The notes under the pieces were generated by a model that made no database searches, was not told the DNA's origin, and worked only from the letters and a program-made list of their open reading frames with translations. A stretch of DNA of 64,000 bases from an uncultured Peptococcaceae bacterium (GTDB taxonomy: Bacteria > Bacillota > Dehalobacteriia > UBA4068). The stretch is taken from NCBI GenBank assembly GCA_964372025.1, contig CAYJPF010000002.1, forward strand, positions 9,999 to 73,998, given 5' to 3'. The first letter of the stretch is position 1. Every line of letters begins with the position of its first letter. Below are positions 34,817-55,785 of the stretch, piece by piece. The position numbers and the translations under genes were made by a program.

Positions 34817-35129
34817 AGTTTATAGGTATATCAATAACAATAGTATTGTGCCCGTATTTTGCGGGCTCTTTTGTTATGTAATATCCTACAACAGAGTTGA
34901 ACGTATGTACTCCTGAAGAAGCTTTTCTATATATATCAAATACATCAGGGCATTTGGTAGGAATTTGTTCATCATACACTGTCCAAATTCTACTATTATT
35001 TATCCCTAATGCGAGAAGCTTTGGTAAGTCTCCTCTGTGATATAATATGCCGTTATTGGGAGCATTTAAGAAGAATTGATTTATAATAGGTTCATATTCT
35101 TCTCTCCACTCGTTATACTTAATCTCCAT
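34815..35129 (-). CDS. hypothetical protein (104 aa)
   Basis: Clean ORF with a TAA stop. Confidence 0.55.
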   Translation of the reverse strand: MEIKYNEWREEYEPIINQFFLNAPNNGILYHRGDLPKLLALGINNSRIWTVYDEQIPTKCPDVFDIYRKASSGVHTFNSVVGYYITKEPAKYGHNTIVIDIPIN

Positions 35130-35691
35130 CTACACTCCGGTATTTAATTAAATCCTGCTGAAATGCTTCTGTTGAAGCGTATCCACAGGTATTGTCTACT
35201 TCTGGACAAAAACCACGATATATGCATTCCGGTTGACACTTACTAACAAGTATTGGATCAACTACATTAACCGCCTCTAATACCTTATTCCAAGCTGATC
35301 TAGTCTCCGAAGAAGCTAGTCTACAACATCTCTTTCTAGAGATGTTAATCATGGCTTGGGCATTAGCAGTCATGTCCATATTATTTAAAGTGCCTTGGGG
35401 CAAAGTATTTCTGTTAAACACTTCCTCATTACGATCTACCCGTTGAGTACGAACAAACTTCTCCGTTCCAACATGATGCCTTACGAAGTGGGCCGTCACC
35501 CATTGCGGGATGTTCTCCCAAGTTCAATCATATTCAACTAATCTAATAGGACTGTGTTCCGCAAGAAGCATTTTCCTCTTGAACCTATCAGAAGGTTCTT
35601 TCTCTAAAGGCTCTTTACCGACCGTTCTGCGGGCAGCATTAAGAGCACGTGTTCACGAAGTAACTTGGTTAAAGAATTTAATCTTGGTCAT
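35119..35691 (-). CDS. thyX: flavin-dependent thymidylate synthase family (ThyX-like), divergent, with a C-terminal Cys cluster (TGA at 35524 and 35653)
   Basis: The track ORF 35119-35499 extends upstream through two TGA codons to ATG 35689-35691. It shows ThyX-like patterns: AEHSP…W.W…P.WV…FVRHHVGTEKFVRTQRV against the ThyX motif RHRxxSxxxxSxRY. It also has TANAQAMINISRKR…AW, plus C-x2-C-x6-C-x6-C at the C-terminus. Confidence 0.5.
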
Positions 35692-38755: not shown

Positions 38756-39033
38756 TATATCACTAAATAATACTGGCCATTATCAATATCTGATATGATT
38801 TTTTGCACCATAAAAGTACATAATCTCCCTTCTTCATCTTTGCATTTTATTCCTTCTCCCTCAAAAAAATAAGGAGCAGAATCTATAGAAAGGCCTAGTG
38901 CCCCATCAAACCTAATGTGGGAAGAAACTTTTTTAGTTACAGTTGCTTTTAAGACTTTTATAGTACTGGGATGTGTTAATGGAAGCAGTTCTTTTAATAT
39001 AATTTTAAATTTTTTACCATAATTATACTTCAT
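38755..39033 (-). CDS. hypothetical protein (92 aa)
   Basis: ORF with a TAA stop. Its start overlaps the upstream stop. Confidence 0.45.
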   Translation of the reverse strand: MKYNYGKKFKIILKELLPLTHPSTIKVLKATVTKKVSSHIRFDGALGLSIDSAPYFFEGEGIKCKDEEGRLCTFMVQKIISDIDNGQYYLVI

Positions 39034-39490: not shown

Positions 39491-42400
39491 TTATTGCAAC
39501 AATAATGTTGCACATAAAGAAGTTCCACAAGATTTACAAATCTTACAGCCTCCTTCCGAATGTAGTTTTTCACCACATTCTGGACAAGTAGCATGAGTTT
39601 CTTTCTCATACTTAGATAGTATTCTACAAATAGCGGAGGTAAAAGAAGTTACTAATGGATTAATTTTCTCATTAGTTTTAATAATTTCTTTTACGGGTGC
39701 GCCATGGCGTAATAGCATAGAAGTTAGTATAGAACTCATTCGCTCCTCATTCAATTCATTTGCCAATTGCAAATTAGGGATGACTAAGCCTGATTCTCCA
39801 ATAAATTTATAATGTCCTTTCTTTAACTTAATTACTTTCCCCGGACCCTCTGCAATAGGGTCTTCTCCTAATTTAAACGCAAATGTTTCGTATGGACGCC
39901 CTGCGTACAATCCCACAACTAATGCATAAGGGACTTTTTTAATAGACACTAAATGCAAATTGGCTTGTAATTCTTTAGGACGTTTTGGCGGCAATGACTC
40001 TTTAAAATCAGCGGGCTTATCTTCTTTAGTGACTAAGATTCCTGACCGCGACCCTTCTCTGTACACAGTAACCCCCTTTAGATTATGCTCCCAAGCCTTC
40101 ATATAAATAGTACTAATCTCCTCTACAGTAGTGCTTTCCGGTAAATTTATAGTACTGGAGATACTATGTGTTGTTCCCGATTGAACCGCTGATTGGGAGA
40201 TAATTCTATCAATAGGACGTATCTCTGGAGCAGTATTACCATAATAAACACTTTCTTTTACTATTTCATCTAATTCTTTAGTGGCCATCGAAGATAATTG
40301 AGCATACGCCTCTGCAATTGATAATTGTCGCTTAACTGCGTACTCTTTAATAACTCCCGGATGGATGACATTAAATTCTACAAAGGGTTCTCCATTAGGA
40401 TCTATATATGTAGGAATATCATCTGAACTAGCACGCTTTCGTCTAGTGTAATATAAGGAAAATACGGGTTCTATACCCGAAGAACATTGGGCGAGCAAAC
40501 TAATTGTTCCTGTTGGAGCTACTGTAGAAAAACTAATATTACGACGGGCTGAATCTACTGACCCCGGGCTTGTCCCAGTTATTAGACTGATGTGTCCTCG
40601 ATTTTCGTAATCAGGGTTGAACGCGGGAAATACTCCTCGCTCTTTACCTAATTTTTTAGATTCTTCGTACTCTGCCTTAAACTTATTTGTAGAAATTTCG
40701 TCCATTAGCATAACAGCTACTTCTGAACCATATTTTATACCTAATTGAGCAAACATATCTGCCCATCCTGTAGTACCTATACCACATCTACGCCCTTGTT
40801 GCGCAGTTTTCCGTACCTTTATCCATAGTTCGTGCTCTTTAGTCTTCTCCTCCACATTGGCGATAATAGTATCAATCGCTTCTATCTCAAGATCTATAAA
40901 ATTATCAGCTAATCGCATAGCTTTTGCACACAGAGCCATAAACTTCGTCATATTAAAAGATGCTTCCGAAGTATATGGAGCACTTACGCAATTACTTAGA
41001 TTAATATGTAATAATCTACATGCATCGTAAGGAGATAAGGGAATTTCTCCGCAATTATGCGCCACCATATTATTTACAATTAAACAATTGGTTCCCGGTA
41101 CTTGAATATCATATACATCGGTTTGTTCACCTTCCTCGATAGCAACTATTGCATTTTCAAATCTATTTTTAAATTTAGTAGCTAGATGCTCTGGAAGAGA
41201 ACTTGTATTTTTCCATGCAGGGGGATTGCCATTCGGAATAAATTTACCCTGCTCATCTCTACATTGATGTGTTTGAGGATTTTGAGTAGTAGCCGTAACA
41301 TAAGAATGTTCAGAGTGAGAAATACTTGAAAGGTTATTTATATTATTATTAAAAGTATCTCCATCTAAATGGTGTATATCCATATTAATAATATTTCCAT
41401 GAACTGCTTCGTACACTAACCTATGCTCCATCACATACTCTCTGTTCCCCTCAGTAGTTAATTTCACTCCTGCATAACGTCTTCCTCTACGACTGCGTAA
41501 AATATGAGCAATCCTATCACCTAATACTAAATTTCTAGCTTCGATAAATCCTTTGTTATGCACATACATTTTATGATCAGGAGTAACAGTAATACTCTCT
41601 CCTGTTCGTAATGTGATTTTTAAAGTTTTAGCATTCTTTTTAGTTAAAAATGCAGCGGAGGATTTTACTACGCATAATTTATTATTAGCATCCATGCTAT
41701 ACACATACGTAGGTTTTGTAATGTCAGCTATTCTTATCCTGCCCTCCACTGTCTCTACCAATGAGTCCGGGTGAAAGCAGGGATTAGTCGAGATCGGCCT
41801 AAATTCGGGATAGTTCCCATCCAAAGAATTTTCTAAAATAGTGTTCCAAAATAAAATCCCGGGCTCTGCGGAAGCATGTGCTGCTTGCATCATCTTATTC
41901 CAGATTTCTTGGGGATTTACTTTTTTAATATAAAAATGAGTAGAGGTGTTCGGTTGAATTAGCTCTACCCCCTCTTTATAATACTCATCGTACAATTTTT
42001 TTAGTTGTTCTTGGTCATACGTAGACGTAGTAGGAAATTTGAGATAATACTCAGTATTACCGTATTTAACAGCTTCCATAAATTCGTCAGACACCTTTAC
42101 TGAAATATTTGCACCAGTTATCTTAGATAAATCTTGTTTACTTAGGATAAACTCTAATATATCAGGATGATTGCCGTCCATAGTAATCATCAATGCTCCT
42201 CTACGTCCGTCTTGCGCAACTTCTTTTGTGCATGCAGAATCTACTTCCATGAATGAAGTAGCTCCAGAAGAAGTTTTTGCCACATTATTAACTTTTGAGC
42301 CCCTTGGGCGAAGGTGAGAAATATCTTTTCCAACGCCACCGCGTCGCTTCATAAGCTGTATTTGCTCTTCTCTACTACGCATGATTGCCTCGTAAGAATC

Positions 42401-42694
42401 CTTATTATCGCCAATTACAAAGCAGTTGCTCAACGATCCTATATGCTCAGTATTTCCTATTCCGGCTAATCCAGATCCTCCCGGAATAATATATTTAAAA
42501 TCTTTTAAAAGATTATAGATATCTTCCTCTGATAACTCGGGAGATGGATAAGATTGCTCAATTCTAGCGAATTCTTTTGCAATCCTTTTGTGCATATCAT
42601 CTGGAGTAATATCCGTAGATAATGCGTATTTTTCTGACCACACCTTAGCAGCCATTTCGTCGCCATGAAAATAAGACAATAATTTAGAATTCAT
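39491..42694 (-). CDS. nrdJ: class II (B12-dependent) ribonucleotide reductase NrdJ, interrupted by an intein
   Basis: MNSKLLSYFHGDEMAAKVW start. The extein motif STNPC|GEIPLSPYDACRLLHINL is split by the intein. There is a C-terminal Cys-rich Zn-ribbon. No TGA occurs in ~1067 codons. The track start at 42793 adds a spurious 33 aa. Confidence 0.85.
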   Translation of the reverse strand: MNSKLLSYFHGDEMAAKVWSEKYALSTDITPDDMHKRIAKEFARIEQSYPSPELSEEDIYNLLKDFKYIIPGGSGLAGIGNTEHIGSLSNCFVIGDNKDSYEAIMRSREEQIQLMKRRGGVGKDISHLRPRGSKVNNVAKTSSGATSFMEVDSACTKEVAQDGRRGALMITMDGNHPDILEFILSKQDLSKITGANISVKVSDEFMEAVKYGNTEYYLKFPTTSTYDQEQLKKLYDEYYKEGVELIQPNTSTHFYIKKVNPQEIWNKMMQAAHASAEPGILFWNTILENSLDGNYPEFRPISTNPCFHPDSLVETVEGRIRIADITKPTYVYSMDANNKLCVVKSSAAFLTKKNAKTLKITLRTGESITVTPDHKMYVHNKGFIEARNLVLGDRIAHILRSRRGRRYAGVKLTTEGNREYVMEHRLVYEAVHGNIINMDIHHLDGDTFNNNINNLSSISHSEHSYVTATTQNPQTHQCRDEQGKFIPNGNPPAWKNTSSLPEHLATKFKNRFENAIVAIEEGEQTDVYDIQVPGTNCLIVNNMVAHNCGEIPLSPYDACRLLHINLSNCVSAPYTSEASFNMTKFMALCAKAMRLADNFIDLEIEAIDTIIANVEEKTKEHELWIKVRKTAQQGRRCGIGTTGWADMFAQLGIKYGSEVAVMLMDEISTNKFKAEYEESKKLGKERGVFPAFNPDYENRGHISLITGTSPGSVDSARRNISFSTVAPTGTISLLAQCSSGIEPVFSLYYTRRKRASSDDIPTYIDPNGEPFVEFNVIHPGVIKEYAVKRQLSIAEAYAQLSSMATKELDEIVKESVYYGNTAPEIRPIDRIISQSAVQSGTTHSISSTINLPESTTVEEISTIYMKAWEHNLKGVTVYREGSRSGILVTKEDKPADFKESLPPKRPKELQANLHLVSIKKVPYALVVGLYAGRPYETFAFKLGEDPIAEGPGKVIKLKKGHYKFIGESGLVIPNLQLANELNEERMSSILTSMLLRHGAPVKEIIKTNEKINPLVTSFTSAICRILSKYEKETHATCPECGEKLHSEGGCKICKSCGTSLCATLLLQ
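41054..41779 (-). mobile_element. intein (242 aa) with an HNH endonuclease domain, inserted at the RNR catalytic NPC|GEI site
   Basis: Begins with Cys (CFHPDSLVETVEG…) and ends …NNMVAHN, followed by the +1 Cys. The internal HNH motif is HHLDGDTFNNNINNL…SHSEH. Confidence 0.8.
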
Positions 42695-43739
42695 GTAGTA
42701 ACTTTTTAATGTCGATCTCTCGCTCCCCTTTACAAGTAAACGTAGTTCGAGAGTAGGTAAATATGTCATTATCAAAATGCCATTTAGCATCATCTAATAA
42801 CATCTTTCAGTCTTTAAATCCGTGCTCTAAAAGCATTTGTTCGTTAGGATCAGTTATATTAAGCCCGTCTATTTGTAATGGATATTTCCATATAATAGGA
42901 GTTCTTGTAAATTTATTAATTACAATAAATTTAAATGGCAAAATAGTAAAATCTTTGTAATACTCATCACTAGAAAGTATATGTGCTAATATATATGTAT
43001 ACATATTCGCCTGAATATAATAATTCCAATGTAACACAGAGTCTTCAAATTTTTCCTCGGCCTTTCCAGTAGTCTTTAGATCAATAGGCTGAACAGTTTT
43101 GTTGTAATGATCCACAATAATTCTATCGAACATACATCTAATTAATGTCCCGTTATAATCTAGACTAAATTTTAACTGATTTAATCCTTCGGAATCATCG
43201 TCCAACTCGGTGAAATATTTTTTAGTAAACTCCGAATTAAATAATGTTTCAACGCAGGCTTTTGCTACGTCAAACTCTTCTTTAGAAATTAGCGTCTTAT
43301 CTTTAGTTTGTTGAAGTAGGTGGAAATAATGACTATGCTCAGCTAATTTTGATAACTTAGTAGCGTCTCTTCATGTAGGGCCATAATTAAATTCTACGCA
43401 TGCTTCCAGCTTAATTTCGTCTGGTAAAAATGTAAAAGATTTTACATCTGAGTACAAGGTAAATAAGTATTGTATGATTTTAGAAATTGCTGGAGGAGGC
43501 ATTACAAAAGATTGTATAAAAAATCTTTCGTCCAATAGCTCTGGCTCTGTCACTAGGCAATCTACTAAGGACCCAAATCTAAGTGCGTCCGACTCTTCTA
43601 TTTTAGAAGAAATAAGGCATTTTGGAGTGCCCTCCCTTAGAAAAGAGGACAACGTAGAATAAGAAAATCCTCCTAACTGCCTATATTCTGATTCCGTAAT
43701 AGGTAGACTAATCTTCTGTAGTGACTTCTTCATAACCAT
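42684..43739 (-). CDS. PD-(D/E)XK family nuclease (RecB/YqaJ-like exonuclease), ~351 aa, TGA at 43371 and 42807
   Basis: Track ORFs 43371-43739 and 42807-43205 are in one frame and joined across TGA. The motifs are …GSLVDC… and PIDLKTTGK, the D…(D/E)xK pattern. Ends at TAA 42684-42686, overlapping the RNR start. Confidence 0.55.
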
Positions 43740-44409
43740 TCAATTGTAAATAATCCAAAAGGGTTGTTTTTGCTATAGTTAGGAGTCTAAATTCTTCTAA
43801 CATATTATTCTTAATACCTTCTTCTACATCAGCTTGTATCGCTTGCTCCAATTTAAGTAGAGCAGCAGTATATATCTCTAAAATTTTTTCTAATTCCCTG
43901 TTATCCCACCATTCTAAAAACTTTTTATAGTCTTTTTCTGAAAATAATGAGCGAATAGAATCTAATATTTGGATTTTATACTTCATATTATTTAAAATAA
44001 TAACAGATTGTTGCACCTGTTTAACAGTATGGGGCTCGAAAAATAAATACTTAATCCCCATAGATTCTAGATGATGTAAAAATAACTTCCTTTTTACGGG
44101 ATATACATCATTAGCTTTTCCCTTAACTTCAAAAATAATTAATCATTCCCCTAAGTAAAAAGTAAAATCAGGAGTATAGGTCATACTTCTAATATTTACT
44201 ATAGGGGAAATTATTTTAGTTTTATTGTTGGGAATAAATGCATACCCTCTACCTAAAAAAAATTTAGGTAAGAGGGTAGCCTTATACTGTTCATAAAGAG
44301 GGGTGAATCCCGCTTCTAATAATAATCTATAGCACGTAGCTTCTAGCTTACTTTTGAAAATTATATTATTATACTGGGTGCTCGTGGCATTTTTTACTTT
44401 TTTATTCAT
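43708..44409 (-). CDS. DUF1064/VRR-NUC-like PD-(D/E)XK endonuclease (putative resolvase-type), TGA at 44143
   Basis: Track ORFs 44143-44409 and 43708-44061 share a frame and are joined by TGA. Motifs: FKSKLEATCYRLLLEAGF…YTPDFTFY…IFEVKG. TAG stop. Confidence 0.5.
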
Positions 44410-45874
44410 TAATTAATAAATTGTGTAGAAAAGTGATTTTACTATCCTCTTCTTGATCGATTCTTCCCCAAGTATCATTGTATTCGCATTCAGAATACCT
44501 ACGCATAAATTTACGCAAAATACAGTAAGAAATCATTTTTTCGGCTAAATCTTTTGAATACACTTTATTAAAAATGTATTCTAATATTCCGCCAGAAGAT
44601 GCTTTTGAGACAAGTGTGGCGATAGAATCTGTAGTAGTGCTAGCATATTTTAAAATAGCGTTACACAAGAACATCCAATACACGATCTTCTGATAATTAG
44701 TAGATGGTCCGTGAATTCTAAATTCTACTGTCTTGCCCGCGGGCTTAAACATTAGGTTTAATAGGTTTGCCCACATATACCGATACTCCATATTCCATTT
44801 CTGGCGGTCATTAGGATCGCCTGGATGAGCTTTTGTTAAGTCATCCTCGAAATTTAATGCTCCTCCTGAATAGTTTTTATACAGTTGTTCAAAGGAGGAG
44901 AATTTAGGCAATGGATTTGTGTAATTTTTTCTCTTAGCCTTATATTCAGCAGTTCTTGTAGCGAGTCGCGGCAAAATATCGAAAACACTAGATTGTATAT
45001 TATATAAAATATTATATAATTTAAAAATCTTAGTTTTGTCAATAGGAAATCCTCCCAAATGAACGTGAACAGAGCATTCTTTGTTGAATCGAGTTTTTTC
45101 GGATAATACTCGAAGTTGTTCATGGAGAAGTTTAAAGCCTTCTTCTCCAGCCATGGGTACAGTTGCATACTCAATTCCTTCTATAGACCCATCTCGTAAA
45201 GGAATCAGTCCTAATTCAAAACATTGTTGTTCTGGGATCACTCCCGCACAAGTCTCAAATTCAAGGCCAAAAGTAAATTCCCCAAATTCTGCTACTTCAG
45301 AACTATTAAGGGCTAGGTCTGGATAAACTTTGGGAAAATCCATAAACGCCTTTAGATGAGGGCCGCTAGAATACATTTGCTCTATTGAATAATTGTATTT
45401 TCCCGGCTTGATGAAGGACTCTTGAAGAGCCATAAAATGGGCATCCTCTTTAGGAATATTAGCACATTGTCTCCAAATGCGCTCATCTGGAAATTCTACC
45501 AAGTCTGGAATCATTTCTAAGACTTTTGCATTTGGAACGAATGTATTAATTTCGTATGTTCCTAGATAATAATTTAGATGCACTCTGATGGGGGAGTGGT
45601 CCTGTACCGCAAATCTTCCGTAGACATAAGAGCCTTCCTTCATTCCTATAATTCCGAAAACCAATTGTTTACTACCACGGAGTTTATAACTAGAATCAAC
45701 GTCGTCGAAAAAAATTCGTCTATCCCCCTTAACATACCAGTCTTTTTCTACAAGTACTGCGTCTACTTCTTTTAGGAAATAGGCTCCATTAATGAGTACA
45801 CAATCAATGGCTGGAGCAATGACTCCTGTATTTGTAATAATTGTTTTAATTTTTTGCATCATGTTCACTCTCAT
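44402..45874 (-). CDS. glutamine-synthetase-fold carboxylate-amine ligase (Amidoligase_2-like), 490 aa
   Basis: Motifs FGLEFE…(E-rich)…SVHVHLGG, typical of the amidoligase/GCS2 family. No TGA. Confidence 0.5.
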   Translation of the reverse strand: MRVNMMQKIKTIITNTGVIAPAIDCVLINGAYFLKEVDAVLVEKDWYVKGDRRIFFDDVDSSYKLRGSKQLVFGIIGMKEGSYVYGRFAVQDHSPIRVHLNYYLGTYEINTFVPNAKVLEMIPDLVEFPDERIWRQCANIPKEDAHFMALQESFIKPGKYNYSIEQMYSSGPHLKAFMDFPKVYPDLALNSSEVAEFGEFTFGLEFETCAGVIPEQQCFELGLIPLRDGSIEGIEYATVPMAGEEGFKLLHEQLRVLSEKTRFNKECSVHVHLGGFPIDKTKIFKLYNILYNIQSSVFDILPRLATRTAEYKAKRKNYTNPLPKFSSFEQLYKNYSGGALNFEDDLTKAHPGDPNDRQKWNMEYRYMWANLLNLMFKPAGKTVEFRIHGPSTNYQKIVYWMFLCNAILKYASTTTDSIATLVSKASSGGILEYIFNKVYSKDLAEKMISYCILRKFMRRYSECEYNDTWGRIDQEEDSKITFLHNLLINE

Positions 45875-47321
45875 TTGATATTAACCATTCAATAATACCC
45901 TTAGCAGTCAATTCTAATTCTTCCTTTGTTACCGCTACCGACTCTGACGCAACTGCCTGCTGGGTTTTTTCACATCTTGAGCATACAGAATCTTCTGTGT
46001 AAGTAGTAGGTTTTCCGTCTCTAATTTTGTAATATCTATTTTTAGTGTAAAAATAAACGTGTAGTACACCAGATCCTGGCTCTCCCTCCCCATTTTCCCA
46101 CAATTTAGTAAGTTCATTATAATATAAATCTTCACTTAGGCAGCGGATAGCTTTCCATAATGGGAATGTGGGATATGAAGATTCAATTACTTGCTCTATT
46201 GCACAAAGTAAGTTATAAGAATATTCATCAGTCAGTCGATGCCCCTTAAAGAAGAAGAAGGGCTTTGCCTCACTAGTTTTAGTTTGCGGAGAGTATCCAT
46301 AAGGAGTAATGAAATGTCTTCCAGACAGCCATTCTCCCATCATTTTATACTTACCGCCCTCCATCACAACTTTTCGAGAGGTAGCTCCATGAGATTGATC
46401 CGAGAGGGGAGTTAATACTGTAATGGCTCCATAAGTAACAGTTGATTTGTAGGAAGACTGTTTAGAATAGTTAGAAGTAGGATAATCATCATAATCAGAA
46501 TATCCATAATTGCCACCATAATTTGATCTATAGGGCGTTACTGCAGCACTTTTATGTTGATGGTTTTCAGAACGATCGTATACCACTGTCTTAGGATTTT
46601 CCCAAGTTTTACAATAGGAAAATAAAGTATTATGCTCTATATCAATTAGATCTTTAGAACTAAGTTGAATGAGTCCTAAGGACTCCTTAATAGAAGAAAA
46701 CCAAAATCCATTAGGAGTATTCACCATATAAAGAGGGCGTTCTTCCGTAGTCACTGTGGATGATTGATAAGATTTAGATTTTCCCTTAAATATAGAAATT
46801 ATTGGGGAAACTTGTCTATAATCTACAAAAACAAATGCTCCGGCTCCTTGATACTCTGTGAGCACATCAAAGCCTTGATAATATACAACATGTGCAAAAA
46901 TCTGAGAGTCTGTAAAGTCTGCAGGAACATTACGTAGGTACTTTTCACTCAATTCCGTGTAATTTACCAACGTACCGTTATGAATCATTACAAACTCTAC
47001 TTTGCCCTCTGCGTTAGTGATTACCACTGGCTGAGCTTGGTCCACAGTTAATTTCCCTACAGAAGCTTTTCTACAATGCCCTAATGCGACTTGCACTGTA
47101 GAGTCGTTAATATTTCTTACAAAAGAAGACGTCTCTGTGGTAACAAAATCTGCAAAAAGTTTAGTTGCCCCAATACCGTATTCATAATTTCCGTCGATGA
47201 ATGCTCCCGCACTGTCTCCACCACGTTTGTCATTGATAGATCCTAGTACTGCGTACTTTACTTTAGAAAAATCACTTTTTCTTGAAGGCGAGGTTTGGAT
47301 GTATCCAAAAATTCCACACAT
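45846..47321 (-). CDS. class II glutamine amidotransferase (Ntn hydrolase, N-terminal Cys) fused to an unknown C-terminal domain
   Basis: Starts MCGIFGY with the catalytic Cys2, which is the classic GATase type 2 pattern. The remaining ~240 aa are unassigned and carry a CSRCEK Cys pair. Confidence 0.7.
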   Translation of the reverse strand: MCGIFGYIQTSPSRKSDFSKVKYAVLGSINDKRGGDSAGAFIDGNYEYGIGATKLFADFVTTETSSFVRNINDSTVQVALGHCRKASVGKLTVDQAQPVVITNAEGKVEFVMIHNGTLVNYTELSEKYLRNVPADFTDSQIFAHVVYYQGFDVLTEYQGAGAFVFVDYRQVSPIISIFKGKSKSYQSSTVTTEERPLYMVNTPNGFWFSSIKESLGLIQLSSKDLIDIEHNTLFSYCKTWENPKTVVYDRSENHQHKSAAVTPYRSNYGGNYGYSDYDDYPTSNYSKQSSYKSTVTYGAITVLTPLSDQSHGATSRKVVMEGGKYKMMGEWLSGRHFITPYGYSPQTKTSEAKPFFFFKGHRLTDEYSYNLLCAIEQVIESSYPTFPLWKAIRCLSEDLYYNELTKLWENGEGEPGSGVLHVYFYTKNRYYKIRDGKPTTYTEDSVCSRCEKTQQAVASESVAVTKEELELTAKGIIEWLISNESEHDAKN

Positions 47322-47322
47322 A

Positions 47323-48120
47323 TTAAAGAATATTATATTTGTTAATTAATTTTTTAGCCAAGTCTGTATTATTAGTATTAATACATTCCATAATTGCATC
47401 CATATCTGCTTGAGGAGTCTTACCCTCATTTATGAAAGCTATTGCCTTCATTGTTTGTCGGTATACCCAACGTAGTGTTTCCTCACTGGTGATGAAATAT
47501 CCAGACAAAGTGCGATATTCGCATCCATAGGCAGTCATTCTAAAACAACCCGCTTTTCCATATAGTTTCCTACGTTCATTATCGTTGTCCATCAATATTG
47601 ATGGGACTCCTAGAAATAGGTCTAGAGTTTTAATAATGAGCAACGAAGTGGTTAGGTTATGATCGTCGTACCCCACGTGAATATGGCATCCTGTTGTTCG
47701 GAGATTAGTTGCTGCTCCTTCTGGAGTAGGATTTTCTGCCTCTAGCCAAGCGTTGAAATCTGGTTCGCAGCCAAACATCTTAGCTTCATCGGATTGAAGC
47801 TGATCTTCGTCAATAAAAGCACTTCCTTGACATAGTATATCTAATTTAGAGTCTTTAGATTTCACAAAATCTCTGATCCATTCTTTCATCGTCAACATGT
47901 TATTAACGAAATCGTCCTCGTTGTCTACAGGGGGAATATTGTACTCTGCAAGAATATTATCAATTTGCAATCCAAATCCACTGGGCATATTTTCAGGATG
48001 ATATGCATCCCCTTTTTGTCCCGGGATTAGTCCTATAGAAGAAACTACCTTATCAGTAGTTGTATTAACGATAAAAAGTTCTGGATCAGAACCAATTGTG
48101 ATGTTTTTTAATTTGCTCAT
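47323..48120 (-). CDS. second glutamine-synthetase-fold carboxylate-amine ligase (Amidoligase_2/GCS2-like), 265 aa
   Basis: IGSDPELFI near the N-terminus and GCHIHVGY in the middle, the GxExE / HxH pattern of this family. Confidence 0.5.
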   Translation of the reverse strand: MSKLKNITIGSDPELFIVNTTTDKVVSSIGLIPGQKGDAYHPENMPSGFGLQIDNILAEYNIPPVDNEDDFVNNMLTMKEWIRDFVKSKDSKLDILCQGSAFIDEDQLQSDEAKMFGCEPDFNAWLEAENPTPEGAATNLRTTGCHIHVGYDDHNLTTSLLIIKTLDLFLGVPSILMDNDNERRKLYGKAGCFRMTAYGCEYRTLSGYFITSEETLRWVYRQTMKAIAFINEGKTPQADMDAIMECINTNNTDLAKKLINKYNIL

Positions 48121-48129
48121 TTTGTGAGT

Positions 48130-48753
48130 TTATTTTAAATATGATAAAATAAGTTGATTAGTGTATTCTATATTGGCCTCATCTGAAGACCATTCTGGAT
48201 GTCCCTGAATACAAAGGGAATTTGTTTTTGGAAAGAAAGCATTTTCTACCTCTACGAACGCATTTGGAACCTCAATAGGACCATTTCCCATACAATATCT
48301 ATCAGAACGTGCTTCTTCGCTCCACGCCAATAGTTCCCAATTTTCTTTGGGCATATTCCATGGATACATCATCTGGTGATGTACAGAAGTAACATTGTAG
48401 ATCTCTCCCGTATTTGTTTGAATAGTGTGTCCCCCTCCTCCAGCATGTCTTCGAACATCTTGGATAAGCTTTCCGCCAGATAGTGCACAAAGAAGTTGAG
48501 CTCCCCTACAAATACCTAATTTTAGAGTACCTGCAGGAATCTTATTATATTCAGCTAACTCAAATGCATCTCTACGCCTATCAAAATACGTAGAAGGATG
48601 CTCTGTGTCCCCATATATTTCAGGATTAATGTCTGCCCCTCCTGTAAAAATAGCGATATCCGCTTCGTTTACATTATCAGTTAATGTAAATGGGAAATTA
48701 ATAAAACAAGTAATATTGTTCCAATCATTTCCTACAATATAAATTTTTTTCAT
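48130..48753 (-). CDS. class I glutamine amidotransferase-like / peptidase C26 (gamma-glutamyl hydrolase-like)
   Basis: GICRGAQLL (nucleophile elbow with Cys) and IQGHPEW (His-Glu). Resembles PuuD/gamma-glutamyl-GABA hydrolase-type enzymes. Confidence 0.6.
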   Translation of the reverse strand: MKKIYIVGNDWNNITCFINFPFTLTDNVNEADIAIFTGGADINPEIYGDTEHPSTYFDRRRDAFELAEYNKIPAGTLKLGICRGAQLLCALSGGKLIQDVRRHAGGGGHTIQTNTGEIYNVTSVHHQMMYPWNMPKENWELLAWSEEARSDRYCMGNGPIEVPNAFVEVENAFFPKTNSLCIQGHPEWSSDEANIEYTNQLILSYLK

Positions 48754-49520
48754 TATAGACTTTTTAAATAATTATGTGTTTTTTCAATAAAATCAGGTTC
48801 GCGTGTCCTACTGACCTCGTGGTAGGTAAATCCTAGATAATCTTCTGGCGAACTAGTTACTTTTAAAGATCGTGGAAAAGTTTTTATGAGCCATTGAGAG
48901 TTCTCATACATCTTACTCCAATCAGTTTCTTTAAAAGACTTTATTAATTGTTCAAAAGTTAATGGTACCCTAGGCAACGTATCTGTTGACCAACAATGAT
49001 TAATTCTTCGCAGCAAGCATAGTATCAATGAACAAATAGGATACTTTTGATATTCCTTATAATGCGCTCTTAATGCATATGCGGTTACTGCTAAATAATT
49101 ACCAGGAGCCTCGTTAGGTAATCGCATTAATCCCGCTAATAAAAATACACAATATTGGGGAATATTATTAAACGTGGCTGTAAGTTTGTATTTACAAAAA
49201 GCTATAGAAGAATTCTTTTCTACGTTTATATTAAAGGTAGGATCTAAAGATTGAAATAATGCAGTTAGTTCTTGGTAATAAGCAAGAGTTTCTTTCTTAT
49301 TAAGAAAAGAATGCGAAAGTACGTCTGAATATGCTTTTTTATCTGCTAAATAATAAACCAAAGCACCCGTAGCAGTATTTATTGTTTGGGTACGCATTCT
49401 ACCACTTCATCCCCCAAAACAAGCAGTTTCGGTTGCCTGTTTATTTATCCGGTCTACAATAGTTCCTTTATTAGAAACAATTGTTACATCTAAATGATAA
49501 TTACAATATAATCGTTTCAT
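48753..49520 (-). CDS. hypothetical protein (~255 aa; TGA at 49407)
   Basis: The track ORF 48753-49397 extends upstream through TGA to ATG 49518-49520. Confidence 0.45.
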
Positions 49521-49551
49521 ACTATAATTAACATTTTTTGGGATTCTTCTT

Positions 49552-50424
49552 TTAATTTGGAACATACTTCAATAGTGCTTTAATAAATGGTTTATAATAA
49601 GGGTGACTTCGTAAAGTTTTTTGTGGAGAGCCCAAAAGTAAGTCTAAATCTTCTCGGCCTGGATTTCTGCGAGAAGGTACAGAGGTAATTCCTTGATTAC
49701 GTAAATAGGTTTTGTATTGAGCTGAATACTCAAATAAATTATTTACTCGATTGTTAGTAGGAATTTTTGCAATTACCTTCGAAATATCACAAGGAACTAG
49801 GTTTCCTGAACTAAATCCAAAAGAATGGCTTCCTCCAGAATAAGACATACTCTCAATAAAAGTTACCAGCCAAAATAAACTCTTTCGACGATAATATAGC
49901 TGTTCTTTTAATTTAAAGGCATGTGCTAAATAATAATGATACGGCCACTCATAAAGGTATCGAATAGCAGTCGTTATAAATCTAAAGCTCATCTTAGATA
50001 ATTTGTCTGCTGCAAACTTTACCTCATAAATAGGAGTGTTTTGGAAACATTCTGGAATGATGTGCTCATCGTCGTCCTCATCTATAGGCATCGCATCAAT
50101 TTCTTGTACTGTTAGTCGCACATTTGTGTTTCCCAAGGAAGGGTGATTAGCAGCCTCCGCAATGATGTCTAGCCAAGCCTGAATCTGCTCTAATGAGCAC
50201 CATGTGTAATTACTCCAACGCTCTCCCGTAAGCAATACGTCCACATTTTTGTTAATGTAGATAGAGCTTTTCATATCCTTCATCACACAGGTTTCCTCAT
50301 TAAGGAGGCCCAGCCATGCTCCATAACATGCATATCTATCTAACTCTACAGTATTGGCGATACTATGACCATTGTATTCTTTTGTGAACTCTGCTGTATA
50401 AATTGAACAAATGTTTGTAATCAT
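49552..50424 (-). CDS. hypothetical protein (290 aa)
   Basis: Clean ORF with a TAA stop. It overlaps the ATP-grasp gene's stop. Confidence 0.5.
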   Translation of the reverse strand: MITNICSIYTAEFTKEYNGHSIANTVELDRYACYGAWLGLLNEETCVMKDMKSSIYINKNVDVLLTGERWSNYTWCSLEQIQAWLDIIAEAANHPSLGNTNVRLTVQEIDAMPIDEDDDEHIIPECFQNTPIYEVKFAADKLSKMSFRFITTAIRYLYEWPYHYYLAHAFKLKEQLYYRRKSLFWLVTFIESMSYSGGSHSFGFSSGNLVPCDISKVIAKIPTNNRVNNLFEYSAQYKTYLRNQGITSVPSRRNPGREDLDLLLGSPQKTLRSHPYYKPFIKALLKYVPN

Positions 50425-51206
50425 TATAGTCCTAATGTATTTAGTTTGTTGATATATTTAGTAATGGTGTAATCTCCCAATGATGGGGCTGAATTTGTTT
50501 CAAGAATAATAAATTTTGGATCCACCATATTGTCTTTTCCCTGAACTTTGATATCTACTGCGCCCACATCTATTCCTACAGCATTCATAGCTGCTACAGC
50601 CATATTGCAAATTTCTTCCCAATTGCCTGGTTTTGCAAATAATGGATTTGGTTGACCTGTTTCGGGATTATGTTCGCATATCCAAACACTATTATCGTCA
50701 TGACGATGCCATCTTTCTACAGCGTCCCTTTGCAACATTTTTCGATAGGAAATAACAGGTTCTCCCGCTATAATGTGGATTCTATACTCTTTACTATACG
50801 TATAGTATTTTTCAATAATATGTGTCTCGGGACTCTTGTCCTCCATACATTCCCTAAGTTCTTGGGCATTTTGAATAAGGTAAATTCCATTTCCCTTAGA
50901 CGAAGCTCTATGTTTTACAATGGCGGGAAAGGTATCCCAATCGTCCAATACCTCTCTAACTACTCCCCATTCCGCAGTAATTATCTCCGCAGAGTCAAAC
51001 GCACGCTTCATTAATACTTTGTTTCCAGAAATTTTACACGCTTCTACACTGTTGAGGATTGTGCAATTATTAGGAATACCGTTTGGGAAAATTTCTTCCA
51101 TAGGAGTAGTAGACCCTAATCTAAGTAACGCATGGCCGTTAGTACGAATTTTTCGTCTGAGGCCGTGAGCAGAATGGTTTCTACTCCTTATTTTCATATA
51201 TCTCAT
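50424..51206 (-). CDS. ATP-grasp ligase (RimK/glutathione-synthetase-like)
   Basis: FPAIVKHRASSKGNGIYLIQNAQEL (K…G.G loop), IIEKYYTYSKEYRIHII and IDVGAVDIKV…FIILETNSAPSLG (catalytic E/N), all in ATP-grasp order. Confidence 0.6.
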   Translation of the reverse strand: MRYMKIRSRNHSAHGLRRKIRTNGHALLRLGSTTPMEEIFPNGIPNNCTILNSVEACKISGNKVLMKRAFDSAEIITAEWGVVREVLDDWDTFPAIVKHRASSKGNGIYLIQNAQELRECMEDKSPETHIIEKYYTYSKEYRIHIIAGEPVISYRKMLQRDAVERWHRHDDNSVWICEHNPETGQPNPLFAKPGNWEEICNMAVAAMNAVGIDVGAVDIKVQGKDNMVDPKFIILETNSAPSLGDYTITKYINKLNTLGL

Positions 51207-51216
51207 ATATACAATT

Positions 51217-52227
51217 TTAAAATGGACAATCTATATAATTAATTGTCTTGGTTAATAATGAGTTAATAATAGTAATAAATTTTGTCTTGCCAACTTTTTG
51301 AAATAAATCGGAACTATCTTTAGCTCCAAATTCTTCTGGTAGAATTAATTGGGTTAATTCAAATGTTTTAGAAAATAGTTTTCCATACTTTGTTCCCCAA
51401 TTTTCTTTCTTTGTAAAATCATTATCATATAAAATATAGATGTTAGCAAATCTACTTTTTAATTCGTTGATAACAGATTCTTTGGGTAAATAGGATTCTG
51501 CCTGTAGACTTGTGGCCGGAATACCTGTGGAATTCCATATGCACATAGCATCCTTACGAGAAGAAGTAATAATTAATGTGTCTCCCTTTTGGGGGAGTTG
51601 TTCCCACATATCCCAAGTATCCCCACTATGTTTATTTAACCATTTAAATTTAGTGCTAAACGGCTGGTAAATTTTATATGTAGGAACACCATCTTTAAAC
51701 TCTATGTATGCATACGCATATTTTTCTGCGGGGATAATATGTTCTCCTAATTCAGTATATAAGAATGTATGACTGATAGGAACTACCTTACAAAATTCTA
51801 AAAACTTTTTAGATAATCCGTAGCTTCTCCAATATTCTTTATCCCATTCTGCCCACGCTCTTTGCCTAATTTTGATCTCAGAAACTCTAGGTTTAGGAGA
51901 ATATTTAGTCTTCGGCTGTGCAGAAGGAATGGAGGCTGTCTTAGTAATATCTGCGGAATCAATAGTATTTAGCACTTCTTGCCAAGGCTTATTTAGATAG
52001 CGCTGCAATAAGGTGAATAAGTCGCCTTTATCACCGGTAGCAAAATCAGTAAAATATACTTTTCCTTCTGCACTACATGTAAGCCCTAACGAAGGATTTG
52101 TATCAGAGCGGAGAGGACTACATATTACAGTAGGTAAATTGCATACTCCAAAATAATGATGGAGTATTTGCAATTCACTTACTTTTTCTAAGAGATCCTC
52201 TTTATAGGAGTTCCCCTTAGCAAACAT
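51217..52227 (-). CDS. DnaG-like DNA primase with a degenerate (ligand-less) CHC2 zinc-finger region and a TOPRIM-like core
   Basis: ICSPLRSDTNPSLGL…GKVYFTDFATGDKGDLFTLL parallels the DnaG CHC2 region, but lacks the His and two Cys ligands. The TOPRIM-like region is IITSSRKD…IYILYDND. Confidence 0.5.
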   Translation of the reverse strand: MFAKGNSYKEDLLEKVSELQILHHYFGVCNLPTVICSPLRSDTNPSLGLTCSAEGKVYFTDFATGDKGDLFTLLQRYLNKPWQEVLNTIDSADITKTASIPSAQPKTKYSPKPRVSEIKIRQRAWAEWDKEYWRSYGLSKKFLEFCKVVPISHTFLYTELGEHIIPAEKYAYAYIEFKDGVPTYKIYQPFSTKFKWLNKHSGDTWDMWEQLPQKGDTLIITSSRKDAMCIWNSTGIPATSLQAESYLPKESVINELKSRFANIYILYDNDFTKKENWGTKYGKLFSKTFELTQLILPEEFGAKDSSDLFQKVGKTKFITIINSLLTKTINYIDCPF

Positions 52228-53108: not shown

Positions 53109-53483
53109 TTAAATACCGTAATATTCACGGATAGAATTGTCTACTAAAGACAATGAATTTGGGATCAGCATGTCGTTAAACATACCAATAGGAGATTTTC
53201 CAGAACTTGCATTACATTGTGTCTCAAAGTAATACTTATTTCTTCCATCTCCTGATGCTTCTACCTTAGTAAATAACACTACAGGTAAGAGAGATTCTGG
53301 GAATACTTTTTTGAGTTTTCTACCAGAAGTGGCTAATACTTTACGCTCTTGTCCAGAAGCATCTGTAACAAGTTCAGGATGCCCGAATATGTAGCATATT
53401 TGGTCTTCCCTAAGAATAGTATTAGCAGTCTTAATAATATCTACTACATCAATAGCTAAATCCTTCCATTGCGTTTGTTTTCA
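53109..53483 (-). CDS. exon 2 of an intron-split RecA-fold P-loop ATPase (Sak4/AAA_24-like)
   Basis: The frame is open from just after TAA(53484-53486)/TGA(53481-53483) to TAA 53109-53111. It has no start codon of its own. It reads …DLAIDVVDIIK…ICYIFGHPELV…MFNDMLIPNSLSLVDNSIREYYGI. Confidence 0.5.
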
Positions 53484-54254
53484 TTAGGTTTTTTATCCTA
53501 ATCTCTACGCATTTCTGCGTAGTCCAGCATACATCATCGCTTCACAGCGTTGGGCACTCGTGGGGTAATTATTAGTGACTTCTTCATACCCTATGCGTTG
53601 AACCTTCTCCATACTAATTAGTCTTCAGGAGCTTGGCTGCTTTTAAGTGATTTTCCCTATAATAAGGTTTTTACCATCTAATAGGCGTTATCCTATCTGC
53701 TTCTAAATACTTTTCAGTAAGTAAGCGGTACTTATTATTTTACAGGACGTTCCAGCAATTCACCCAATTTTAATTCGACCATTATTTAAATTGCCACCTA
53801 AATCCATAGGCTGTGTTGTACTTAGGTAGATTGTTACAACACTTTTGAATAGGACTATATGCACTTTTGTTAATAGATCTCGCAGCTTCTCTAATCGCAG
53901 GGAATTCTGCTAATACTTTCCCAGTATAACGATCTATTTTTAATACTGTTTTACCACGACTATAGTGACTATTATATTTAGTACTGCACCACTCTAAATT
54001 ATCCACATTATTATTAATTTTATTTTCATCTTTATGATTTACTTCTGGATAATTTTGTGGATTGGGTAAGAAGGTAAGCGCTACAGCTCTATGCATAGAT
54101 AGGTGATATTGTTTGTAATTATTATTCAGGGTTACAAACTTATATCCACGGGAATCAGTTGCTTGTTTTAAAGGTACTCCCTTCAAACCAAGTATGACTC
54201 CTGTTCTAGATACTTTGTATCTTGGATCTATAGGCAATTCTTTAAATTCCATAA
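53484..54254 (-). mobile_element. group I intron (same family as the 432-1251 intron) carrying an HNH homing endonuclease
   Basis: On the - strand: P GAATTGCTGGAA (53750-53761), Q AAGCAGCCAAGC (53631-53644), R GGTTCAACGCATAG (53591-53607) and a GNRA hairpin CTACGCAG-AAA-TGCGTAG near 53500. The ORF lies 5' of P. Boundaries are approximate. Confidence 0.6.
53782..54252 (-). CDS. HNH homing endonuclease (NUMOD4 + HNH_3-like) inside the intron
   Basis: MEFKELPIDPRYKVSRTGVILG (NUMOD4-like) and HKDENKINNNVDNLEWCSTKYN (HNH). TAA stop. Confidence 0.8.
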   Translation of the reverse strand: MEFKELPIDPRYKVSRTGVILGLKGVPLKQATDSRGYKFVTLNNNYKQYHLSMHRAVALTFLPNPQNYPEVNHKDENKINNNVDNLEWCSTKYNSHYSRGKTVLKIDRYTGKVLAEFPAIREAARSINKSAYSPIQKCCNNLPKYNTAYGFRWQFK

Positions 54255-54601
54255 TCGAATGACATTTTCTTGCGATCTCCCAACTCTTTAAAAGTTAGGT
54301 AACTATTAATTGTATCAATAGCACAAGATTTGATGTTCTCATCTTTAGACCAAGCTTCTAGAGTTTTAATAATAGTTGCAATATTATCAGTCTCTCTATA
54401 ATTGCGATTCTCTGCATTCCATTGTTTAGTTAATGCCGCAGGGAAAGGCAATTTCTTTTGATCAATATTGATTATTCCATGATGTTTGGGATTGATTCCC
54501 AAATAGTTTTCTACAAAGTCAATTGATCCATCAGGATTAATAACTGTAGAAGTAGATTTTCCGTCCCCGGAGAACCCAACGATTCCGACAACCACGCCCA
54601 T
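54255..54601 (-). CDS. exon 1 of the split P-loop ATPase (Walker A/B part)
   Basis: MGVVVGIVGFSGDGKST (Walker A) and …SCAIDTINSYLTF (Walker B-like). Its frame terminates at TAA 54242-54244, just past the HNH start, so the 3' boundary is approximate. Confidence 0.5.
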
Positions 54602-55785
54602 ATTCGTATAAATTTAAATTTCATAGTAGTCTTTTGTTTAGGATCTACTAATAAAGTAGCCACAATAACTTTATTATTTTGCCTTATAGCATTAATTTTA
54701 TTGTAAACTACTTCTAACTTCGCCTCCTCAGTAGGAGGAGGTAATTCTTTAAAGAAATTAACGGCTCCGTCAAAGTATAGAGGACAAATAAATTTGCCTC
54801 CTCCTTCTCGGCCTCCAATTAACTCTAGAAAGCGTATATTATCACCAAATTTGGCAATATTATACTTTAGAAAGGTAGGAATATTGTATCTATGGGGAGC
54901 ATATAAGCCCATAAATATATCCACGTCTCTCCATGTTGTTTTGCACTCACCTAGTCCGTCAGCAGAGGGCTTCAGCTTATCAAGTTTGAAATTCTCCGTG
55001 CCTTCTTGGGAAGCAGCCTGTTGTTGTACAACTACAAATGTAAATTTATATCTATTTCGTAATTGCACTAAATATTTCGAAGATAACAATTCTATAGTAG
55101 ACCGTAGATCTAGTCCCTTTTCTTGGGTAAGTAAGGATATGTGGTCTATGATTACTATGTTATACAACTCAGGGTCATTAGGTTCATAATAATCAAAAAC
55201 TGATCTAGAGTACTCCTCATGGGTCTCATTATCTTTAAATATTTTAGATGTAAAATGCGTAGTTCCAACAGATGAAGCATATTTCTGTAAAAACTCCTTA
55301 ATACCTGTTGGGTGCCGCACATCGTCGATGAAAGTCACGTGCTCCTCAAAATACGTAATATATTTTTGATATTCCGGAGTTTGTAGTAACTCTATTGCTT
55401 CCTGAGGAAGTAACTTTTCCAAGTTAATAGAGCGCAGTTGTTGACTATCCAATCTAATCTTTTGGCCGGATAATTTAAATAATAAATAGCAGAGAAATTG
55501 TATATATTTTTGTTCTACACTCATCTCAAATGTAAAATAAAACCATCGCACATGAAGACCTTTATCAATAGCTTCAAATATAGGCTCATATACTGCCATA
55601 AAGTCTGTAATTTGGGTCTTACCTACTTTAGAATTAGCTGTAACTAATATATATTTACCCTTCTCAAATCCTGGAAATACTGCTCTAAATCTAGGAAACG
55701 GTGAGGGAATACAATTAGTTAAACCTTTTACGATTCTCTCTCTATAACTTATTAAATTATGGAATACGCGTTCAAATATAGCCAT
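54511..55785 (-). CDS. DnaB/gp4-like replicative helicase
   Basis: ILVTANSKVGKTQITDFMA (H1), FTFEMSVEQ (H1a), IVIIDHISLL (H2). TAG stop at 54511-54513. The 3' end overlaps the next gene by 91 nt. Confidence 0.75.
   Translation of the reverse strand: MAIFERVFHNLISYRERIVKGLTNCIPSPFPRFRAVFPGFEKGKYILVTANSKVGKTQITDFMAVYEPIFEAIDKGLHVRWFYFTFEMSVEQKYIQFLCYLLFKLSGQKIRLDSQQLRSINLEKLLPQEAIELLQTPEYQKYITYFEEHVTFIDDVRHPTGIKEFLQKYASSVGTTHFTSKIFKDNETHEEYSRSVFDYYEPNDPELYNIVIIDHISLLTQEKGLDLRSTIELLSSKYLVQLRNRYKFTFVVVQQQAASQEGTENFKLDKLKPSADGLGECKTTWRDVDIFMGLYAPHRYNIPTFLKYNIAKFGDNIRFLELIGGREGGGKFICPLYFDGAVNFFKELPPPTEEAKLEVVYNKINAIRQNNKVIVATLLVDPKQKTTMKFKFIRIWAWLSESLGSPGTENLLLQLLILMDQLTL

Follow-up and report, generated by a model that had tools for sequence, protein, structure and literature searches.

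The stretch of DNA considered here, 64,000 nucleotides (nt) of contig CAYJPF010000002.1 and hereafter called the window, contains within its replication arm a block of about 6.8 kb in which seven co-directional genes are bounded by a primase gene (51217-52227) and a resolvase-like gene (43708-44409). Five of these genes encode predicted enzymes of amide-bond chemistry, and two encode paralogous proteins. The block represents the phiEco32-type phage amidoligase module in its crAss-like layout, a kind of gene cluster that is known, widespread, and functionally unsolved. The order is primase-AG-uB-uA-G1-CN-G2-AL2, with the following genes:

50424-51206, minus strand: AG, RimK-like ATP-grasp carboxylate-amine ligase of 260 amino acids (aa), assigned by Pfam and PHROG
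49552-50424, minus strand: uB, 290-aa protein, paralogue of uA
48753-49520, minus strand: uA, protein of 255 codons with one in-frame TGA at 49407-49409
48130-48753, minus strand: G1, thiol amidohydrolase of class I glutamine amidotransferase (GATase) fold and C26 type, 207 aa
47323-48120, minus strand: CN, phiEco32-like COOH-NH2 ligase type 2 of GCS2/glutamine synthetase (GS) fold, 265 aa
45846-47321, minus strand: G2, class II GATase (N-terminal nucleophile type, Cys2) with linker and C-terminal domain
44402-45874, minus strand: AL2, Amidoligase_2 ligase of GS fold, 490 aa, with a long N-terminal extension

The seven reading frames listed by the first-pass annotation are all present on the minus strand, and their coordinates hold, except that the uA frame, called as 48753-49397, truly starts at 49520 and includes the in-frame TGA. 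From the primase to the resolvase-like gene, neighbouring genes share 1-29 nt or leave gaps of at most 31 nt, which is compatible with one transcription unit; scans for sigma-70 promoters and terminators were uninformative. The surroundings that had been described were recovered by Pfam and PHROG searches. The block lies between the primase on one side and the nucleases, ribonucleotide reductase (RNR), and PolA on the other, and the neighbourhood comprises ThyX, a deoxynucleoside monophosphate (dNMP) kinase, PolA, an intein-containing RNR, a PD-(D/E)XK exonuclease, the primase, and a DnaB-like helicase. Among GenBank phages, cr108_1 is the sole relative at the nucleotide level, with 67% identity over 12% of the block.

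All five enzyme family calls made at first pass were reproduced by profile searches against Pfam and PHROG, and the predicted catalytic residues are intact in all five proteins. AG matches Pfam RimK (E 1.5e-6; 28.4 bits, cut-off 21) and phrog_2599 (E 6.8e-27), with a weak match to R2K_2, and keeps the family-conserved residues K63, E140, R142, H144, K156, D218, E236, and N238, the last two forming an E236-x-N238 pair. Its 38 bits on the NCBIfam model rimK_fam (TIGR00768, RimK alpha-L-glutamate ligase) stay below the cut-off of 143.4 bits, and a RimK assignment is supported at the level of the superfamily or fold, not at that of the equivalog. G1, in which the triad C82, H185, E187 is conserved, matches Peptidase_C26 (E 1.7e-14; 54.5 bits, cut-off 20.5) and the class I GATase profile (E 2.3e-7). 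It is nearest to standalone gamma-glutamyl-amide hydrolases; besides the C26 family, these are the solved sequences Lin1909 3fij (4e-7), 7d4r (1e-5), and PuuD 6vtv (0.055) and, as best NCBIfam model, gamma-glutamyl-CDP-amidate hydrolase, with all models far under their equivalog cut-offs. The entry 7d4r is deposited merely as "Probable glutamine amidotransferase"; we take it to be SpuA, the polyamine-pathway hydrolase of Pseudomonas aeruginosa.

CN matches PF14395 (E 2.4e-11; 43.8 bits, cut-off 25) and phrog_3815 (E 3.8e-75) and is the best conserved gene of the block, with 63% identity to its cr108_1 counterpart; its invariant residues are D12, E14, Q52, D54, N55, E59, H146, H148, R183, R194, E201, and R203. 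AL2 matches Pfam Amidoligase_2 (PF12224) over residues 233-407 (E 8.6e-11; 42.6 bits, cut-off 22) as well as phrog_2443 (E 5.5e-20) and conserves G203, E205, E207, D228, E235, H270, H272, E384, and R386, most of them within the motifs G-x-E205-x-E207, H270-x-H272, and E384-F-R386. For neither ligase was an NCBIfam match at E ≤ 0.01, PuuA included, or a PDB sequence match obtained. At the level of family membership, the analogy with PuuA drawn at first pass fails, the ligases having no NCBIfam match; that with PuuD is less clear, as G1 belongs to the C26 family and has the triad, yet reaches 15.7 bits on the PuuD equivalog model, for which the cut-off is 266.

G2 starts with MCGIFG and contains a class II GATase domain (GATase_6/7, residues 1-210), in which Cys2, R84, N115-G116, and D138 are invariant across 118 homologues and the glutamine-binding residues are kept. 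It resembles the glutaminase domains of PurF, GlmS, and AsnB, the asparagine-synthase match being limited to the glutaminase domain. In the structure model (pLDDT 87), the GATase domain comprises residues 1-250 and is followed by a disordered linker rich in Tyr and Ser (269-291) and an alpha/beta C-terminal domain of about 200 aa (292-491). No credible structural match of this last domain was found in the PDB, and its conserved positions are only Gly and aromatic residues; the idea that it might be a synthase domain was rejected on these grounds.

No Pfam, PHROG, or NCBIfam match was obtained for uA (searched as 48753-49397) or uB. They had been listed at first pass as two unknown proteins; the lack of a family match stands, yet they are not unrelated genes but paralogues of one family with a conserved N-terminal cysteine, as 41 of about 45 hits of their iterated profiles are held in common and Foldseek pairs the model of uB with each of the two cr108_1 copies (E 2e-12 and 3e-8). 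Identity to the cr108_1 counterparts is about 21-23% for uA and uB versus 38-63% for the enzymes, which points to a far faster evolution of the pair. Among the relatives, the family could be detected in the crAss-like subset only. Word-indexed homologue searches with uB and with the uA/uB alignment returned nothing beyond the window's own proteins, and an exhaustive HMMER search gave just 10 distant relatives. A papain- or transglutaminase-like Cys-His-Asn enzyme was considered for the pair and rejected, His and Asn being conserved in a subset only and a fold match being absent. Among the anti-phage defence and counter-defence families of PADLOC, the enzymes found no match and uA a single weak one at chance level (PDC-M60A, 16 bits, E 4e-4).

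Occurrence and gene order in related phages

By tblastn, CN was found in 318 GenBank phage records, the carriers including Pseudomonas LUZ24-like and PA11-like phages, Escherichia phiEco32-like phages (Kuravirus), Salmonella phage 7-11, phages of Proteus, Vibrio, and Aeromonas, and Cellulophaga phage phi14:2. In UFV-P2, Escherichia phage 172-1, phi14:2, and Aeromonas phage LAh_9, CN is located beside the primase gene together with Amidoligase_2, class II GATase, and ATP-grasp genes and, usually, a gene for a gamma-glutamyl cyclotransferase (GGACT). The comparison set consisted of 84 loci with a CN homologue, 4 from GenBank and 80 from IMG/VR, in which genes were found by iterated profiles; a scan of IMG/VR with the single CN sequence gave nothing, and the loci were recovered by an alignment-based scan. 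CN is accompanied by AL2 in 84/84 loci, by G2 in 83/84, and by AG in 79/84, the misses being at contig ends. The gene-neighbourhood comparison that had been proposed at first pass shows an association of the core genes far beyond chance. A scan of cellular genomes, one for each of 185,579 bacterial and archaeal species, yielded only 4 contigs, namely, 3 contigs of metagenome-assembled genomes and a single scaffold of 1.1 kb from an isolate assembly. Given 318 phage records versus 4 contigs in this number of species genomes, the module is essentially restricted to virulent phages.

Two layouts are found. Type I, of podoviruses and marine phages, has the order x-x-CN-f7-AL2(short)-G2-AG-GGACT-primase/helicase, while type II, of crAss-like phages including that of the window, has the order primase-(GGACT)-AG-(uA/uB)-G1-CN-G2-AL2(long)-(UDG)-resolvase-exonuclease-RNR, where UDG denotes uracil-DNA glycosylase. 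Three sub-blocks persist through this rearrangement. G2 and AL2 are adjacent in 82/82 loci; uA/uB lie directly upstream of G1 in 26/26 loci, and also in the distant relative L085, with G1 adjoining CN in 35 of 41; and AG adjoins GGACT in 44 of 51. In 44 of the 84 loci, belonging to several unrelated phage lineages, the module has a primase gene no more than 3.5 kb away.

The cyclotransferase family (PF06094, E 9e-23) is represented in 51/84 loci and is accordingly regarded as accessory rather than core; its profile matches no reading frame in the window. Among the 79 loci with a complete core, 36 carry only GGACT, 24 only G1, 15 both, and 4 neither. With one or both in 75 of 79 complete modules, an activity cleaving gamma-glutamyl amines would be nearly obligatory, and the gamma-glutamyl/amide toolkit with a ligase-hydrolase, or writer/eraser, logic that had been suggested at first pass is borne out to this extent. 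The C26 hydrolase and the cyclotransferase seem able to replace each other in part, and most type I modules have kept CN and are devoid of G1.

The catalytic cores are conserved between the two layouts, whereas the noncatalytic parts are lineage-specific, as can be seen from G2 and AL2. The C-terminal domain of G2 is undetectable in type I G2 proteins, whose extensions span 145-430 aa, and the N-terminal part of AL2, of about 200 aa, is found only in crAss-like modules; hhalign relates short and long AL2 with a probability of 99%, covering the catalytic part only. In type I modules, proteins of 260-400 aa are encoded directly upstream of CN, such as UFV-P2 ORF19/20, 172-1 ORF107/108, LAh_9 gp052/053/056/057, and the marine f13 family (positions 6441-8159 in L002, 6421-8596 in L003, 2595-4425 and 5234-6999 in L092, and 1540-2442 in L065, the last being of the marine f13 family). 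In PHROGs, four of these proteins that were tested fall into separate unknown families and five others have no match. Homology of uA/uB to them was considered and rejected, as neither HMM comparison nor hhalign detected any similarity and only the cysteine motif, in the form x-C-[FWY]-[GAS], is shared. This motif, C-[FWY]-[GSRAH] within the first 90 residues and usually at residue 19-37, occurs in 38/52 type I upstream proteins versus 4/67 other reading frames of similar size from the same loci. A central helix-Arg-Pro motif is common to the type I proteins and uA/uB, and Foldseek relates uB to a 284-aa Aeromonas phage protein with a borderline probability of 0.93. A cysteine-motif protein may therefore be a universal fifth component of the module, although this is not established.

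Some further observations concern the relatives. A UDG gene (family f16) directly follows the Amidoligase_2 gene in cr108_1, phi14:2, and many other phages; the f16 profile matches no reading frame of the window. In Aeromonas phage LAh_9 (L092), the module holds four cysteine-motif paralogues and an 846-aa class II GATase and is flanked by genes for RNA ligase 2 and ribose-phosphate pyrophosphokinase, that is, PRPP synthetase (1447-2370 and 14009-14678). In several crAss-like relatives, CN carries inserts of 144-1073 nt that split it after residue ~144-155 (L030-L032 and L072, about 10448-11520; L074-L076, from 10430), and a LAGLIDADG homing endonuclease is encoded in the 1-kb insert. Introns with homing endonucleases usually occupy highly conserved phage genes.

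Proposed chemistry and its alternatives

The block is read here, with rather more confidence than doubt, as a phage-exclusive enzyme set that would build and trim amide bonds by means of ATP, glutamine, and glutamate. Being encoded among the replication genes, it would presumably be expressed with them. G2 would release ammonia from glutamine or, as EgtC does, cleave a gamma-glutamyl amide. AL2 would take the product of G2 and activate a carboxylate as acyl-phosphate, leading to a carboxamide or amide; the two proteins together would constitute a split glutamine-dependent amidotransferase-synthetase. A second amide would be formed by CN, and AG would add a glutamyl group to an amine. This group would later be removed by G1, in place of which most relatives would use GGACT with release of 5-oxoproline. 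As it would be added by AG and taken off by G1 or GGACT, the gamma-glutamyl group would serve as a transient handle or a reversible mark. The allocation of ligases to groups is inferred solely from family and adjacency. We read uA/uB with their conserved cysteine, the C-terminal domain of G2, and the N-terminal part of AL2 as suppliers of specificity for the acceptor or a partner; the lineage-specific domains and the fast evolution of uA/uB suggest that this partner is macromolecular or itself lineage-specific.

The substrate is not readable from the sequence, as the first-pass annotation had rightly stated. A protein or peptide and, with equal weight, a small amine, peptide metabolite, or cell-wall precursor are put forward tentatively as acceptor, DNA or a nucleotide is improbable, and other acceptors make up the remainder. 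Proteins, peptides, and amine metabolites of the infected cell are likelier acceptors than DNA, which is the least supported one: known hypermodification enzymes were not found among the replication-arm reading frames scanned, no nucleic-acid-binding domain was recognized, and the enzymes are acidic to near-neutral.

Several points weigh against the proposal of an amide-building and amide-trimming set. Every step beyond the presence of an intact enzyme of a given family is inferred. G1 could be a true ammonia-delivering GATase that partners CN in a second amidotransferase-synthetase pair and is not an eraser, and G2 may be either a glutaminase or an EgtC-like amidohydrolase, between which the fold alone does not discriminate. 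Structure comparison gave no assignable fold for uA and uB. As the window is without GGACT, the pairing of AG with this enzyme is borrowed from relatives, and the placement next to primase and replication genes in 44/84 loci would fit a role related to nucleic acids as well.

The rival explanations differ in what they make of the hydrolase and of the gene neighbourhood. If G1 with CN and G2 with AL2 were two split amidotransferase-synthetase pairs placing two carboxamides on one metabolite, neither a gamma-glutamyl intermediate nor a writer/eraser arrangement would be needed. The strict or near-strict adjacency of the partners (G2-AL2 in 82/82 loci, G1-CN in 35/41), the match of G1 to the generic class I GATase profile at E 2.3e-7, and the glutamine-binding residues retained by G2 would agree with such pairs. 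They are nevertheless unlikely, as Peptidase_C26 gives G1 a better score than GATase does, the nearest relatives of G1 are standalone hydrolases, most type I modules contain CN without G1, and the GGACT and AG genes would be left unexplained. A Puu/Pau-like handling of polyamines, in which putrescine or spermidine is gamma-glutamylated and then hydrolysed so that polyamine pools are lowered or reshaped, has little probability. GGACT enzymes act on gamma-glutamyl-amines, and the solved relatives nearest to G1 are the C26 proteins 3fij, 7d4r, and PuuD. In P. aeruginosa, accumulation of polyamines inhibits phage replication, and the infected host down-regulates polyamine catabolism (PMC9992862). 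This explanation, however, lacks a PuuA-type GS, an oxidase, and a dehydrogenase, CN and AL2 being without NCBIfam match and G1 far under the PuuD cut-off; three ligases and a glutamine amidotransferase would be superfluous for polyamine catabolism, and with a universal small substrate one would not expect accessory domains that differ between lineages. No greater chance is given to an action on cell-envelope precursors, by which carboxylates of the stem peptide would be amidated or provided with amino acids, with superinfection being blocked or lysis tuned. Known peptidoglycan amidation does employ the same enzyme classes, namely, GatD (class I GATase) with MurT, AsnB1/LtsA (class II GATase), and an ATP-grasp D-Asp ligase, but Pfam and NCBIfam searches revealed neither a Mur-ligase nor an AsnB synthetase domain, a membrane or secretion signal and linkage to lysis genes are missing, and the module resides with replication genes. 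Iyer et al. 2009 are credited by two later papers with the idea of a cell-wall or superinfection-immunity function for phiEco32 (PMC10580990, PMC11706807).

Modification of DNA, with the ligases attaching a Glu- or Gln-derived group to a base or to dNMP/dNTP, the hydrolase trimming it, and the genome thereby being protected from host nucleases, is judged quite unlikely. Known hypermodification clusters are similar in size to the module, and the location of the block within the replication arm, between primase and nucleases, RNR, and PolA, together with a primase within 3.5 kb in 44/84 loci of unrelated lineages, would be in line with it. Lee et al. 2021 reported the co-occurrence of amidoligase and glutamine-amidotransferase genes with 5-HMUDK/aGPT-Pplase in viral contigs (PMC8989533). 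Yet among 30 reading frames of the replication arm, Pfam searches detected no hydroxymethylase, 5-hydroxymethyldeoxyuridine kinase, aGPT-Pplase, DpdA, or TET/JBP; ThyX and a dNMP kinase are present instead. The hypermodification of DNA or its precursors raised at first pass, which drew on replication-gene position only, is not sustained by these results. We also know of no report of hypermodified DNA from the many cultured carriers, such as the phiEco32-like and LUZ24-like phages. It is the recurrent primase neighbourhood for which DNA is kept under consideration, at low probability. In its extended form, in which the ligases would install a Glu- or Gln-derived amide on phage DNA or on a precursor used by the neighbouring primase and polymerase, the hydrolase or cyclotransferase would mature it, and uA/uB would be carriers or specificity subunits, the idea is hardly likely.

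Concerning its importance, the module takes up about 7% of this phage genome and roughly 15% of the 45-kb genome of the LUZ24-like phage UFV-P2. Hundreds of virulent phages infecting Proteobacteria and Bacteroidota, phage-therapy candidates among them, retain it, and it is essentially absent from cells; its occurrence in crAss-like phages brings the question of its function to the human-gut virome. Comparative anatomy provides testable hypotheses in the form of the three sub-blocks, the near-obligatory cleavage of gamma-glutamyl amines, the lineage-specific domains, and a cysteine-motif protein that may be universal. To find DNA or a component of host defence as acceptor would be an important result, and a DNA adduct would represent an unseen hypermodification in crAss-like gut phages and in therapeutic phages of the LUZ24/phiEco32 type.

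Sense TGA codons and other features of the window

The phage evidently reads TGA as a sense codon, most likely for Trp, which is a recoding known in some crAss-like phages. The in-frame TGAs of the replication arm are located as follows:

43371-43373, minus strand: in-frame TGA
44143-44145, minus strand: in-frame TGA
49407-49409, minus strand: in-frame TGA of uA
within 36728-38779, minus strand: in-frame TGAs of PolA

In the PD-(D/E)XK exonuclease, the TGA occupies a column that is Trp in 22/26 homologues, and in the resolvase-like gene, it precedes the catalytic E-x-K. PolA is probably a single gene of 684 codons (36728-38779, minus strand) read through two TGAs: a 3'-5' exonuclease reading frame (38102-38755) and a polymerase reading frame (36923-38092) share one frame that is split and ended by TGA, and the DNA_pol_A match of Pfam breaks off at position 316/381 of the profile, precisely where the second TGA lies. 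In uA (MKRLYCNY...ETACFGG[TGA]SGRMRTQ...), the TGA comes right after the conserved ACFG motif, which is contained in the 37 aa before it; callers using genetic code 11 report only 48753-49397. That uA might be a pseudogene is unlikely, as in-frame TGA occurs genome-wide. In the late arm (7180-34760, plus strand), TGA terminates 23 of the 30 code-11 reading frames, and with TGA as sense, same-frame fusions of 1888, 3750, and 1700 codons result. The frame of 3750 codons is collinear with a single 2967-aa coding sequence of cr108_1, gp_22606, plus gp_22607, and its four confidently aligned TGAs correspond to W once, Y twice, and E once. Replication-arm genes otherwise terminate in TAA (25/33). 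A tRNA, suppressor tRNAs included, was not found in the window.

The ThyX region (35119-35499, minus strand, and 35122-35691) is matched over positions 138-190 of the 191 positions of the Thy1 profile, that is, over its last third; the TGA-permissive reading frame at this place is longer and contains 2 TGAs, and ThyX, too, is probably interrupted by sense TGAs or fragmented in some other way. The large RNR subunit (39491-42793, minus strand; 1100 aa) contains an intein with HNH endonuclease (Intein_splicing, Hint, and HNH_3, residues ~336-580). An ATPase gene of family f14 (53112-54613, minus strand), whose cr108_1 counterpart is annotated as "ATPase containing protein", consists of two parts, 53112-53480 and 54245-54613, with an HNH_3 endonuclease reading frame (53782-54252) between them, which suggests an intron or homing-endonuclease insertion.

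Comparison with known systems

Three characterized pathways offer analogies to parts of the module. In butirosin biosynthesis, the ATP-grasp enzyme BtrJ gamma-glutamylates an amine, the glutamyl group acting as protecting group, and the AIG2/GGACT-type cyclotransferase BtrG removes it. The pairing of ATP-grasp and GGACT in 44/51 related loci and the transient gamma-glutamyl logic are analogous, whereas the window is devoid of acyl carrier protein, decarboxylase, and aminoglycoside genes and has a C26 hydrolase in place of the cyclotransferase. With the Puu and Pau/Spu pathways, the module shares the combination of a GS-fold ligase and a C26 thiol hydrolase, the relatives of G1 including 7d4r and PuuD; CN and AL2, however, belong to the GCS2-like families PF14395 and PF12224 and not to type I GS, and the oxidase and dehydrogenase are missing. 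In ergothioneine biosynthesis, the gamma-glutamyl-cysteine ligase EgtA is combined with EgtC, an amidohydrolase of class II GATase fold that removes the glutamyl group. In contrast, G2 is slightly closer to the glutaminase domains of PurF, GlmS, and AsnB and has a private C-terminal domain, and EgtB and EgtD are absent from the window.

For the PF14395 "phiEco32-like" module itself, a prediction is attributed to Iyer, Abhiman, Burroughs, and Aravind (2009, Mol Biosyst) by two later papers, according to which it would serve in cell-wall modification or superinfection immunity or in the synthesis of a secondary metabolite (PMC10580990, PMC11706807). In the literature searched, neither an experimental characterization of the module nor a substrate was found, nor a paper mentioning crAss-like phages together with amidoligase. 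The closest thing to functional data comes from directed evolution of a LUZ24-like phage, in which missense mutations of the amidoligase and the GATase arose in both evolved lines at differing positions (PMC11450229).

Five of the six features that define the phiEco32-type module are found in the window, the sixth, GGACT, being lacking but accessory. Common to the block and the phiEco32/LUZ24-type modules are the four-gene core of PF14395, PF12224, class II GATase with C-terminal extension, and RimK-like ATP-grasp, the adjacency of G2 and AL2, the location at primase and replication genes, and the occurrence in phages only. In the window, by contrast, the order is inverted and permuted, AL2 has an extra N-terminal domain of about 200 aa, the C-terminal domain of G2 is nonhomologous, and a C26 hydrolase and uA/uB are present without GGACT. 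The Steigviridae provide the nearest counterparts. Phage cr108_1 (MT774385, gp_22626-22632) matches the block gene for gene, all seven lying in identical order between primase and nucleases, with enzyme identities of 38-63% to the window, but with a UDG gene adjoining AL2 that the window does not have there. In Cellulophaga phage phi14:2 (gp048-052), the core lies beside the primase with GGACT present and G1 and uA/uB absent. A further difference of the window is the in-frame TGA of uA. The crAss-like layout is thus already present, and partly annotated, in GenBank, and its variant features are uA/uB, the long AL2, and the C26 hydrolase in place of GGACT. As it stands, the window provides one more, somewhat divergent, case of a known uncharacterized module.

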